From the sequence record SRR22947725_1091: a stretch of 41,917 bases of DNA; one strand, given 5' to 3'. This document shows, in pieces, positions 2,049 to 41,917 of this stretch (its first letter is position 1; every line of letters begins with the position of its first letter). The notes beneath the pieces were generated by a model, which had not been told where the DNA came from, did not search any database, and was given only the letters and a program-made list of their open reading frames with translations. The position numbers were made by a program, and so were the translations under genes.

Positions 2049-2972
2049 ATGCTTGAACTGAGACATTTAAAAACGTTAATGGCGCTCCGGGAAACGGGTA
2101 GCTTGGTTGAGGCCGCGGAGGTCCTGCACTTAACGCAATCAGCCTTATCACACCAAATTAAGGATCTTGAAGATCGATTAAATTGTACGCTGTTTGTTCG
2201 TAAAACTAAGCCGCCTCGGTTCACGAGTGCCGGTCGCCGGTTACTGGCGCTCGCGGATCTGGTCGCGCCCGAATTTAAAGCGGCTGAACGAGACATCGCA
2301 AGATTAACACTGGGCGAGACCGGTCGGCTGCACATTTGTATTGAGTGCCATTCTTGCTTTCAGTGGCTGGTGCCCTGTATCGAAGCCTATCGTCTAAATT
2401 GGCCTGAAGTGGAATTGGATTTGATCGGCGGATTTAGTTTTACGCCGCTGCCGGCTTTGGCGCGGGGGGATCTTGACCTCGTGATCACCTCGGACCCGAT
2501 TGACCTACCCGATATTCATTACGAGCCTCTGTTCGAATACGAAGCAATGCTGGCTGTGTCGAATCGCCACGCATTGAGCCAGAAGCCCTTTATCGATCCA
2601 TTGGATTTGGCGGATCAAACCTTGATCACCTATCCCGTTGATCGAGACCGGTTGGATGTTTTTACCCAGTTTCTAGACCCGGCCGGGGTCGACCCAGCTT
2701 CAATTCGAAATGCCGAACTCACGCCAATGATGGTGCAATTGGTCGCAAGCGGTCGAGGCGTTGCCTGTCTGCCCAATTGGGCTTTGACCGAGTACTTGGC
2801 AAACGAGTTACTCACCGCGAAACGATTGTCGGAAAACGGCCTTTGGGGACGACTTTACGCCGCCGTCCGCCGCGAGCAACTCGAGGATCCCTTTATGCAA
2901 GAGTTCTTGAGTACTGCGATATCAACTTGCTTCAATCATCTGGCTGGCATCAAAAGAATTGAGGCCCTTTAA
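2049..2972 (+). CDS. metR: LysR-family methionine regulator MetR
   Basis: MLELRHLKTL..., HLTQSALSHQIKDLE helix-turn-helix and the MetR signature IECHSCFQWL. The start at 2049 matches the usual MetR N-terminus; the ORF track starts at 2025. Confidence 0.93.
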   Translation: MLELRHLKTLMALRETGSLVEAAEVLHLTQSALSHQIKDLEDRLNCTLFVRKTKPPRFTSAGRRLLALADLVAPEFKAAERDIARLTLGETGRLHICIECHSCFQWLVPCIEAYRLNWPEVELDLIGGFSFTPLPALARGDLDLVITSDPIDLPDIHYEPLFEYEAMLAVSNRHALSQKPFIDPLDLADQTLITYPVDRDRLDVFTQFLDPAGVDPASIRNAELTPMMVQLVASGRGVACLPNWALTEYLANELLTAKRLSENGLWGRLYAAVRREQLEDPFMQEFLSTAISTCFNHLAGIKRIEAL

Positions 2973-3118
2973 GGCAGTCGGCGCTGCGCTGAGCGACCTG
3001 ATGTTTAGAATGCTCGCTGGGATTCACTGAATCACGACACAGTGTGACGAGGGGCATTGCACGGGGCGCGCGTCGGTTTATCGCCGCAATAGCATGGTGT
3101 CTGCGAAACCCCGGACAT

Positions 3119-3153
3119 TAAAAAGCCCCAAAATGCCAAGGCACTTTGGGGCT
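3119..3153 (-). terminator. Rho-independent terminator
   Basis: Minus strand reads AGCCCCAAAGUGC-CUUG-GCAUUUUGGGGCU followed by UUUU. The single A/C mismatch on the plus strand becomes a G-U pair on the minus strand. Confidence 0.85.
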
Positions 3154-3306
3154 CTGTCTTAACGTTTGGGAGCGGACTCCGAGTTAATTTAACTCGGAGG
3201 CGCCCCTCATAGACTGACTATTGATGGGATCACCTCCTTTGCGGTCAGGGGATTAAAAGGCGCGCTGGAGGTTCCCCCTGGTTAGAACGTCTGCGCTTTA
3301 AACTCG
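3119..3306 (-). ncRNA. Candidate structured small RNA or micro-ORF mRNA with an extended Shine-Dalgarno sequence (AAAGGAGGUGAUCC)
   Basis: Bounded by a sigma70-like promoter and an intrinsic terminator. Contains several helices, including a perfect 11-bp inverted repeat (3177-3199), and a 14-nt complement of the 16S 3' end (3240-3227). Confidence 0.6.
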
Positions 3307-3312
3307 GGTAAA

Positions 3313-3341
3313 AATGTAAGTCCAATCAAGCCCGGAGTCAA
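3313..3341 (-). promoter_or_regulatory. sigma70-like promoter for the candidate small RNA
   Basis: TTGACT (3341-3336), 17-nt spacer, TACATT (3318-3313). Confidence 0.65.
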
Positions 3342-3363
3342 AGGATTTTGTCATTTTTGCGTC

Positions 3364-3951
3364 TTACGGGACGAGCGCCGTCGCAATCCAGCCGTTTTCG
3401 GATCGCTCAAACAAAGTGCGCTCGTGGGGTAAATCGTTTTGAGACAGGTCCAGGCGTTCAATTTGATCAAGCTGAACAGACAGTCCAATGGCGGCGCTGC
3501 TCGGTTTTAAGTCCTCCGGCGCAACGCGTTGTGACAAAGCCTCAAATTGCTCGAGCAGTCCAGCTCGGGAGGTCATAGGACTGCTTTGCGGGGCCGTCCT
3601 GTCATAAAAATAGTCCAAAAGCTTCGCGCGCAGGGGGCGTTTCTGCCAATTGTCTTGGATCGCGTCGCTGGCCAAGGCTTCTGCGATTCCGCTCAAGCGA
3701 TATTGGATTTGGAGGCTGGGATACCAAAGCAGTGCCTGGCAGCGCGGTTGCTTTACGAGCTGTTGCCATTTCGGGCTGCTGGTATTAATGAATAGGGTGA
3801 TGGTTGTCTCGGCAATTTGACGTAAAACCAGCGTCCGGACCTGGGGTGAGCCGGTGGCATCCACCGTCGAGAAAAAACACACGTTGGCGTTTGGATCCTG
3901 TTGCCCATTGGCGGCCATCTGGTCAGATTGCAGCTGCTCGATAATGTGCAT
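3364..3951 (-). CDS. Pyridoxamine 5'-phosphate oxidase-family FMN-binding split-barrel protein
   Basis: STVDATGSPQVRTLVLR, SPKWQQL, QIQYRLSG and the C-terminal HERTLF...W...LVP pattern. Confidence 0.8.
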   Translation of the reverse strand: MHIIEQLQSDQMAANGQQDPNANVCFFSTVDATGSPQVRTLVLRQIAETTITLFINTSSPKWQQLVKQPRCQALLWYPSLQIQYRLSGIAEALASDAIQDNWQKRPLRAKLLDYFYDRTAPQSSPMTSRAGLLEQFEALSQRVAPEDLKPSSAAIGLSVQLDQIERLDLSQNDLPHERTLFERSENGWIATALVP

Positions 3952-4229
3952 CAGGCCTCTGATCCCAAATCGAAGTCGCCGGATGCGATTTCTACCTCGC
4001 TCATCATTAACGTGAGTCGAACCGATTGATCTTTGCGCTCGAAGGTTCCGCTAATTTGCTCATGCCATTCATAGTCTGTTTGAACGACGCTCTGTAGTTT
4101 GAGTCGGGTCAAGCTTCGGCCTTCGTCTCGAACCAGGCCATTGATGATGAGCTGGGCATGACCATCAGCTCGATAGATGAGGGCAAGTTTTGCGCCGCGA
4201 TGCTCGCTCTGCAAGGTTGTTGGTGCCAA
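3951..4229 (-). CDS. Hypothetical protein (~92 aa)
   Basis: TTG start at 4229 preceded by GGAG. The TGA stop overlaps the next ATG (TGATG), suggesting translational coupling. The ORF track extends to 4277. Confidence 0.65.
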   Translation of the reverse strand: MAPTTLQSEHRGAKLALIYRADGHAQLIINGLVRDEGRSLTRLKLQSVVQTDYEWHEQISGTFERKDQSVRLTLMMSEVEIASGDFDLGSEA

Positions 4230-41857: not shown

Positions 41858-41917
41858 TGGTGGGCCGTCCGCGACTCGAACGCGGGACCAATTGGTTAAA
41901 AGCCAACTGCTCTACCA
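41858..41917 (-). tRNA. tRNA-Lys (UUU), 5' end truncated by the window
   Basis: Minus strand TGGTAGAGCA-GTTGG-CTTTTAA-CCAAT-TGGTC-CCGCG-TTCGAGT-CGCGG-ACGGCCC-ACCA: D-arm end, TTT anticodon, T-arm and encoded CCA. Confidence 0.96.

Follow-up and report, generated by a model that had tools for sequence, protein, structure and literature searches.

A stand-alone RNA of uncultured marine gammaproteobacteria with complementarity to the whole free 16S rRNA tail and a possibly new mode of ribosome engagement

The stretch of DNA analysed here (the window, 41,917 nucleotides of sequence record SRR22947725_1091) carries on its minus strand a stand-alone RNA unit, bounded by a sigma-70 promoter at 3341-3313 and by an intrinsic terminator at 3153-3120. 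This RNA holds a 13-nucleotide (nt) perfect complement of the single-stranded 3' tail of the 16S rRNA, followed after 1 nt by a codon that is AUC, AUU or AUA (hereafter AUH) in all copies and that opens a short reading frame. On comparative grounds it is a conserved RNA family and not a chance motif, because at least 120 genomes and at least 119 metagenome contigs share the 13-mer together with its spacing and the frame; the former come from an exact-core scan of 185,579 GTDB species genomes with N allowed at five positions (at least 120 stretches), the latter from a scan of metagenomes in which the start position was left as NNN. The transcript, the docking of ribosomes and the translation are predictions from the sequence. 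A 30S-binding or ribosome-regulating role is the frame that we prefer, and the RNA may show a new way of engaging ribosomes. The reading that we put first, to which we give somewhat less than an even chance, is that of a stand-alone mini-mRNA which would dock the 30S subunit very tightly at a start position discriminated by IF3, and in which ribosome engagement or translation would matter and not the peptide. An earlier note on this DNA, made without database searches, had drawn attention to the RNA; its observation holds with 13 nt instead of 14, and its interpretation is supported in part. The core features are the following.

3119-3306, minus strand: predicted transcript of about 188 nt, 5' end inferred from the promoter
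3227-3239, minus strand: AAGGAGGUGAUCC, 13-nt perfect complement of the single-stranded 16S 3' tail, read against the 16S tails of carrier genomes
3223-3225, minus strand: AUC at P-site spacing, separated by 7 nt from GGAGG and by 1 nt from the 13-mer; AUH in all copies
3184-3225, minus strand: mini open reading frame (mini-ORF) of 13 codons plus UAA, (I/M)NSQSMRGASELN and stop; frame and stop conserved

Complementarity to the 16S rRNA tail

The minus strand reads AAAGGAGGTGATCC at 3240-3227, which had been described as a 14-nt perfect complement of the 16S terminus. The tail was taken from three relatives carrying the RNA, the nearest genome being without an assembled 16S gene, and in all three the 16S gene ends in ...GCGGCU GGAUCACCUCCUUA-3'. 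Because the tail of the carriers reads in this way, the perfect complement comprises 13 nt (3239-3227), and at the 14th position A faces A in the window, a mismatch; this position is U in 8 of 99 distinct copies, making 14 base pairs (bp) there. The complementarity covers the whole free 16S tail and ends at the base of the last 16S helix. The duplex with the tail amounts to -24.0 kcal/mol for the 13-mer, to be compared with -8.7 kcal/mol for GGAGG alone and -12.2 kcal/mol for AAGGAGGU.

Sequence comparison indicates that the 13-mer is the most conserved element of the RNA. The 11-mer GGAGGUGAUCC is present in 20/20 strong covariance-model matches and the full 13-mer in 19/20. The most divergent orthologue (L160, 52 bits) begins GAGG at the 13-mer site; it keeps GAGGAGGUGAUCC, AUC and GGAGCCUCC at unchanged distance, and its codons 2-7 are altered. 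The 12-mer AGGAGGTGATCC occurs 2-5 times per genome in five genomes, the reversed control being found 0 times, and the other occurrences that were read are either the reverse complement of the 16S gene or three sites inside coding sequences, with no start codon nearby. The sole full partner of the 13-mer in the five genomes examined is the 16S rRNA tail, and the suggestion of the earlier note that the RNA could be a sponge for small RNAs (sRNAs) resembling the anti-Shine-Dalgarno sequence is therefore without basis, as sequences complementary to the 12-mer are otherwise 16S genes alone in these genomes.

The start position and the short reading frame

A codon placed 7 nt after GGAGG stands at ordinary P-site spacing. 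The AUC at 3225 with this spacing, and the 13 codons closed by a stop at 3186-3184, were re-read in the window exactly as first reported: ATC AAT AGT CAG TCT ATG AGG GGC GCC TCC GAG TTA AAT TAA. The ATG at 3210-3208 is, as was said earlier, the only one in frame in the window, but its codon varies in the homologues (ATT, ATC, ATA, AAG, ACT and others). The pattern with which the genome and metagenome copies were collected fixes most of codons 1-6, and the covariance-model matches were used as a check free of that pattern. Of 99 distinct genome copies, 79 have ATC at the start position, 19 have ATT and one has ATA; among the metagenome matches listed, where NNN was allowed at this position, 95 distinct copies hold ATC (82), ATT (11) or ATA (2) and no other codon. 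ATG at the start position with an unchanged core was found 0 times in a scan of the whole metagenome collection, and 20/20 strong covariance-model matches have AUC or AUU. The start codon is thus kept as AUU, AUC or AUA and is never AUG, GUG or UUG (99/99 and 95/95 distinct copies), with a Shine-Dalgarno sequence (SD) complementary to the 16S 3' tail within 5-9 nt upstream of it (GGAGG, 7 nt, AUC).

The end of the frame is fixed to a similar degree. Among 105 distinct RNAs the first in-frame stop follows at codon 13 (42 RNAs), 14 (57), 15 (5) or 21 (1), that is, at 13-15 in 104/105; the +1 frame of the same RNAs closes at scattered positions from 0 to more than 60 codons and the +2 frame closes at once. 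The metagenome copies among the matches listed stop at codon 13 (25), 14 (64) or 15 (3), and 3 are cut by contig ends; a frame of 13-15 codons is also found in 19/20 strong covariance-model matches. The frame and its stop are conserved across homologues even after an indel: in L159 a 1-nt insertion (+1) in codon 8 leads to a new frame that still ends after 15 codons, and in L160, whose codons 2-7 have diverged, the frame still ends after 13 codons. By this comparison the short reading frame is under selection.

The amino-acid sequence behaves differently. Most copies agree with the consensus INSQS-x-x-GAS-[EGNS]-[LY]-x-x, residues 1-5 and 8-10 being nearly invariant and the last 2-3 residues hypervariable. 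The peptides of L159 (IDNQSMKESLRVDIA) and L160 (IITTLLRGASRAA) keep the length but have little in common with the INSQS-x-x-GAS consensus. No excess of wobble changes was seen in 22 distinct unbiased sequences, where the types of substitution at codon positions 1/2/3 number 9/12/13; together with the unrelated peptides of L159 and L160, these counts give no sign of purifying selection on the amino-acid sequence. Because divergent orthologues keep the length of the frame and not its residues, and because there is no third-position bias, the peptide itself looks dispensable on comparative evidence. The idea of a micro-peptide mRNA with a near-cognate start, put forward in the earlier note, is thus borne out for the AUH start and for the stop at codons 13-15, but not for the peptide; of the three ideas offered there, a micro-ORF with a near-cognate start has the strongest comparative support.

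These data bear directly on the possibility of an ordinary small-protein gene, in which the peptide of 13-15 residues would be functional and the long SD would offset a deliberately weak start. The conservation of frame, start position and stop and the near invariance of residues 1-5 and 8-10 in most copies are in agreement with it, and real proteins that combine a weak start with an extended SD are known (PMC13009471, in the part that treats such starts). We nevertheless regard it as rather improbable. The syntenic L159 and L160 retain the length without the sequence, the terminal 2-3 residues are hypervariable, third-position changes are not in excess, the synonymous sites are as frozen as the others, and codons 8-10 are committed to the P3/P4 pairing described below.

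Conserved AUU and AUA starts have been described in S. aureus for infC, cvfC1 and ccpN, all with extended SDs; in the part of the source that deals with them, their output is given as about 10% of that of AUG and they are thought to be modulated by IF3 (PMC13009471). In the nearest genome (G001, L309:1440-1500) infC is preceded by GAAGGAGGC-UACCGA-AUC, i.e., GGAGG-7 nt-AUC. The segment from the upstream stop to the part encoding the IF3 N domain holds no in-frame ATG, GTG or TTG there, and by its sequence infC of this genome appears to use this AUC as its start. Two genomes of the other family do have an in-frame ATG in infC, but without a nearby SD. The likeness to infC-type sites consists in a conserved AUH, never AUG, at P-site spacing behind a strong SD; the difference is that the site here heads, instead of a protein gene, a frame of 13-15 codons in a structured RNA that stands alone, and that the SD is maximal, at 13 nt. 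To judge from these sequences, the mini-ORF carries the infC-type start signal in its most extreme form. A locus of the second family (L171:1565-1700, genus g192) shows a TTGACA promoter, TAAAAGGAGGTGATCC-A-ATG, an ORF of 33 codons (MSSDICRV...) and a terminator. It is an unrelated, non-syntenic gene in which the identical full-length SD precedes a canonical AUG at identical spacing, and it was rejected as a homologue of the RNA.

Promoter, fold and distribution of the RNA

The remaining features of the RNA are listed from the promoter to the terminator.

3336-3341, minus strand: -35 hexamer TTGACT (consensus scan); CTTTGAC(A) is kept in short-class homologues, CTTTACA in the long class
3313-3318, minus strand: -10 hexamer TACATT after a 17-nt spacer (consensus scan); homologues have TAAATT, TATAAA or TACATT there
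3262-3296, minus strand: P1 hairpin, outer stem 3296-3293/3265-3262, inner stem 3288-3285/3274-3271, loop CAGGGGG
3276-3280, minus strand: CAGGG in the P1 loop, 5' strand of a putative pseudoknot; pairable with CCCUG in 99/99 distinct sequences
3246-3250, minus strand: CCCUG, putative 3' strand of this pseudoknot, about 25 nt downstream of CAGGG
3168-3205, minus strand: P3 (3205-3200/3173-3168) enclosing P4 (3199-3190/3186-3177), by covariation
3196-3201, minus strand: invariant GCCUCC, codons 9-10, internal and anti-SD-like, within P3/P4; could pair with the SD instead
3154-3167, minus strand: linker between P3 and the terminator (..AUACGUUAAGAC..), kept in both size classes
3120-3153, minus strand: intrinsic terminator (consensus scan, folding); compensatory changes in 10/13 pairs

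The two size classes differ in the length from the SD to the end of the terminator, which is 113-132 nt in the class of the window (short) and 144-314 nt in the Pseudohongiella-type class (long). In a consensus scan the only promoter-like site within 2500-4000 was TTGACT-17-TACATT at 3341-3313 on the minus strand; this single site and the terminator hairpin found by the same scan confirm the promoter and terminator proposed in the earlier note. The promoters of both classes are near consensus, being CTTTGACA-17-TAnAnT in the short class and CTTTACA-N14-TGTTATATAAAA, with an extended -10, in the long class. No conserved motif or regulator box was found upstream of the -35 in either class, the core promoter alone being kept. 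In the blastn comparison the similarity among homologues starts just 3' of the -10 and stops at the T tract. The terminator is a G+C-rich stem of 13 bp (3153-3124) followed by T5 and is present at 124/129 homologous loci. Folding of the window RNA gives a minimum free energy (MFE) of -76 kcal/mol (z = -5.7), and 0/200 shuffles are as stable.

P1 is an irregular hairpin common to both classes. In 99 distinct sequences aligned to the covariance model, two-sided changes are seen in 5/5 pairs of its outer stem (89.7% of cells paired) and in 4/5 pairs of its inner stem (97.6% paired). A pseudoknot between the P1 loop and CCCUG is possible from the sequence; both strands are invariant, so that covariation is silent on it. 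An A-rich linker separates the P1/CCCUG region from the 13-mer in both classes, and codons 1-6 lie outside every supported helix. At codon 7 the frame enters P3 (GGGAGC with GCUCCC) and then P4 (CUCCGAGUUA with UAACUCGGAG), and in the window the 3' strand of P4 opens with the three bases of the stop codon. A structure-blind MAFFT alignment of 43 short-class sequences was used to score the helices jointly: 96.1% of cells pair over the P1 inner stem, P3, P4 and the terminator, 18 pairs show two-sided changes, the scores are matched by 0/500 shuffles, and all slid controls drop to 33-55% paired. P3 and P4 alone, in the same sequences, pair in 96-98% of cells, with two-sided changes in 1 pair of P3 and in 3 of P4. 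P1, P3, P4 and the terminator are thus backed by covariation, as is proper to a structured RNA in such alignments. The earlier note had pointed to conservation and covariation as the checks to make, and both came out in its favour, the 13-mer being kept in relatives and the helices covarying. In the long class an additional hairpin, P5, lies inside P3.

An alternative helix in which the SD pairs with the internal anti-SD-like element, (GGAGGU..UCCC):GGGA-GCCUCC, is pairable in 99.3% of cells and invariant; because its sequence never varies, covariation says nothing for or against it. Several other pairings were rejected: P2, a local hairpin around CCCUG, pairs in just 29.7% of cells; an AAUAG/CUAUU inner hairpin at the start of the ORF has alignment variants that are, by eye, uncompensated; and an upstream anti-SD in the 3' strand of P1, paired with the SD in the MFE fold of the window, is present in 36/99 distinct copies and is not a feature of the family. 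The linker between P3 and the terminator appears in homologues as unpaired CCC-AUACG-..AGAC/UAGA; a complementarity of 4 bp to GUCU/UCUA (codons 4-6) is possible for it and shows no covariation.

Among the matches listed, the at least 120 genome records are all metagenome-assembled genomes (MAGs) or single-cell assemblies, and nearly all are titled Gammaproteobacteria, Pseudomonadales, Pseudohongiella/Pseudohongiellaceae, OM182 or Candidatus Azotimanducaceae (HTCC2089). The carriers known here are all uncultured and, by title, almost all marine Pseudomonadales. Four copies (L028, L032, L049 and L087) lie on MAG contigs titled Fonsibacter, Planktomarina, Glaciecola and Flavobacterium and are probably mis-binned Pseudomonadales contigs; L032 is nearly identical to L023. 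A blastn search with 3100-3360 gave matches in 21/61 related genomes, namely in 18/19 species of the nearest genus and in three further genera of that family, the related genomes not being independent of each other. With covariance model R1 the RNA was found in 13/41 genomes and 12/40 genera of the family of the window (12 strong matches and one weak partial match) and, at E up to 0.1, in 12/40 genomes of a second family (9 strong matches and 3 weak ones of 19-24 bits), the strong matches of the second family falling in genus g139 (5/5) and genus g197 (4/4), 2/11 genera. Of 401 genomes sampled from 58 families of the order, 3 matched an exact pattern with the 13-mer and GCCTYC as anchors. A covariance-model search of 151 genomes of the order matched the nearest genome alone; with its strict filters and 24 first-look candidates scored per genome, this search underestimates the spread. 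L161, L172 and L173, weak matches of 19-24 bits, do not appear to be homologues. L161:1501-1558 (G025, 24 bits) covers only P1 and a CACCCCG element, is followed by neither SD nor frame, is non-syntenic, and may be a relic or a chance match. No match was found by blastn among 72,556 plasmid and 50,697 phage records, and a mobile origin was rejected.

Two synteny groups were distinguished. In the short class, to whose position L159 and L160 also belong, a PNPOx-like gene lies upstream on the same strand and a convergent gene for a LysR-type regulator downstream; in the long class the RNA lies between a divergent PilZ gene and a convergent gene for an Lhr helicase. No gene of the same orientation follows in either group, and because of this the RNA is no leader, attenuator or riboswitch. 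The attenuation of antisense transcription into the convergent gene is unlikely as well, since that gene differs between the groups (LysR vs Lhr).

Relation to known systems and possible function

No family of Rfam 15 matches the RNA at gathering thresholds in a cmscan-type search of the window, and at E up to 10 the interval 2950-3450 gave chance matches of the terminator hairpin only (best 18.5 bits against a cut-off of 95). A long-class copy had no match in Rfam either. The view that this is not a named family is thus upheld, and a full-text literature search found no paper on such an RNA or on an sRNA acting by ribosome mimicry. The sole match of the whole window at gathering threshold is a tRNA gene cut by the window end (41861-41917, minus strand).

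Several known systems share single traits with the RNA. The STAB-SD elements that stabilise the 5' ends of Bacillus mRNAs such as cryIIIA are SD-like, fully complementary to the 16S 3' end, and bind 30S with no protein made; they sit in the 5' untranslated region of a long mRNA with no start codon at the proper spacing. The RNA described here, unlike them, has no downstream mRNA and does have a conserved codon at the start position and a conserved frame. With tmRNA (SsrA) it shares a structured RNA in which pseudoknots, putative here, precede a short AUG-less frame ending near a hairpin, but the first codon would stand in the P site (7-nt SD spacing) and not in the A site, and the peptide has a hypervariable C-terminus, which a degradation tag does not. 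ARAGORN found no tRNA or tmRNA in 2900-3500, where Rfam likewise had no match, and a resumption of the trans-translation kind on the AUH codon was rejected on the P-site spacing, itself inferred, and on the lack of a tRNA-like domain. The dual-function sRNAs SgrS/SgrT and Spot 42/SpfP have ORFs that start at AUG and a peptide that is the conserved element. They resemble the RNA as stand-alone sRNAs with their own terminator and a conserved short ORF; here, however, SD and frame geometry are conserved more strongly than the peptide. Leader-peptide attenuators and antibiotic-sensing leaders also combine a short ORF, a strong SD, alternative helices and an intrinsic terminator, but in the present case no gene of the same orientation follows and there are no runs of regulatory codons. 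CsrB/RsmZ and 6S RNA are alike in concept, as mimics of the natural nucleic-acid ligand of a machine; the ligand presumed here is the anti-SD tail of 16S rRNA, for which the literature search found no described family.

A member of the CsrA/RsmA-titrating sRNAs, of the RsmY/RsmZ kind, would use the GGA motifs (CAGGGGGA, AAGGAGG, CUCGGAG) as protein sites. Several such motifs do stand at conserved positions, one of them in a hairpin loop, and the hosts are Pseudomonadales by record title; this is nonetheless very improbable, as no Rsm or Csr family matches in Rfam even at E up to 10, no CsrB/RsmY/RsmZ-type activating sequence is conserved upstream of the core promoter, and 30 contiguous invariant nucleotides, the AUH codon and the position of the stop would be left unexplained. 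A base-pairing sRNA of the Hfq/ProQ type, with CCCAUCAAUAGUCARUCUA and the AUACG..AGAC linker as seeds and with SD-like sequence and frame secondary or part of a dual function, agrees with the long invariant unpaired segments beside the terminator, which are typical of seed regions, and with a stand-alone unit that has its own promoter and terminator. It is quite unlikely in our judgement: the putative seed is lost in L160, where SD, AUC and frame length are kept, the exclusive AUH and the fixed stop are not explained, and the conserved downstream stretch has no special complementarity to 16S. The best duplex of this stretch with 16S beyond the tail reaches -19.8 kcal/mol, which 38/100 shuffles equal, and an extended pairing of this kind was rejected.

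The favoured reading of a mini-mRNA with a tightly docked 30S subunit would proceed as follows. From 5' to 3' the RNA is built of P1, the A-rich linker, the 13-mer, AUH, the frame of 13-15 codons running into P3/P4, the linker and the terminator. 30S subunits would dock very tightly on it, and AUH would be a near-cognate start of the kind that IF3 rejects and infC uses; because the codon is near-cognate and rejected by IF3, productive initiation would presumably be rare or conditional. Upon initiation the ribosome would translate the short frame, melt P3/P4 and terminate in P4. The functional event would be the docking or the translation, with the RNA acting either as a sensor or modulator of initiation capacity or as a translation-driven switch of its own fold. 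Another form of ribosome-directed action, possible but in our view rather unlikely, is a trans-acting regulator whose target would be the ribosome: by pairing with the whole 16S tail it would hold 30S on a start codon rejected by IF3, in the sense of 30S parking or of sensing IF3 or initiation capacity, and translation of the frame would be the route of release.

A pure decoy or parking RNA, as also raised in the earlier note, would sequester or protect idle 30S subunits; AUH would block initiation and the stop would clear the occasional starter. Start sites need less SD pairing than the whole 16S tail. A decoy is favoured by a complementarity that takes in the entire single-stranded tail up to the base of the last 16S helix, by the conservation of the 13-mer above all other elements, by the promoters of both classes, which are strong, near consensus and without a regulator box, and by the RNA being, in five genomes, the only carrier of the 12-mer that resembles a ribosome-binding site. 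On the other side, any stop before the 3' end would clear strays, so that the narrow window at codons 13-15 points to a role for the extent of translation, and the hibernation factor RMF is neither consistently associated with the RNA nor consistently absent from its carriers. RMF (PF04957) is present in 8/41 genomes of the window's family (f1), of which 6/8 carry the RNA, with 6 strong carriers lacking RMF, and in 0/40 genomes of the Pseudohongiella-type family (f58). Such scarcity of RMF is unusual for gammaproteobacteria. With no consistent pattern in either family, RMF was rejected as a replaced or linked partner, and a decoy without translation appears unlikely to us.

Several observations weigh against the mini-mRNA that we put first. 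(i) The stretch occurs in 19 sequencing runs, 9 of them recorded as RNA, but the four runs examined consist of assembled contigs with one flat depth figure each and pieces that bridge genes. (ii) In a nested folding model of 103 RNAs, opening the segment from the SD to the end of codon 6 takes a median of 10.4 kcal/mol, so that the docking site is, according to this model, not simply exposed; the long 13-mer duplex may pay this cost. (iii) A full duplex of 13 bp, reaching to within 1 nt of the P-site codon, may leave no steric room for decoding in the P site. (iv) Codons 1-5 are nearly invariant, synonymous sites included, and these frozen sites call for some additional reader of the nucleotides. 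(v) The pattern that yielded most of the homologues has a fixed core, which biases the apparent invariance, the unbiased set comprising 22 distinct sequences. (vi) The distribution is patchy within the two families and within the order, and the RNA is therefore no general requirement of translation.

Our results add an undescribed, well-supported RNA family to abundant uncultured marine gammaproteobacteria (OM182, Pseudohongiella and Azotimanducaceae/HTCC2089 by title). Its members present an extreme natural SD design, in which pairing with the whole 16S tail goes together with an obligatory non-AUG start, and they offer a natural experiment on the trade-off among SD strength, IF3 proofreading and start-codon identity. 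RNAs that mimic mRNA start sites to engage 30S have often been proposed as a class and, to our knowledge, none has been described. If the target is indeed the ribosome, and not a peptide or an mRNA, this would be the first RNA that acts by mimicry of an mRNA start site to engage the 30S subunit.

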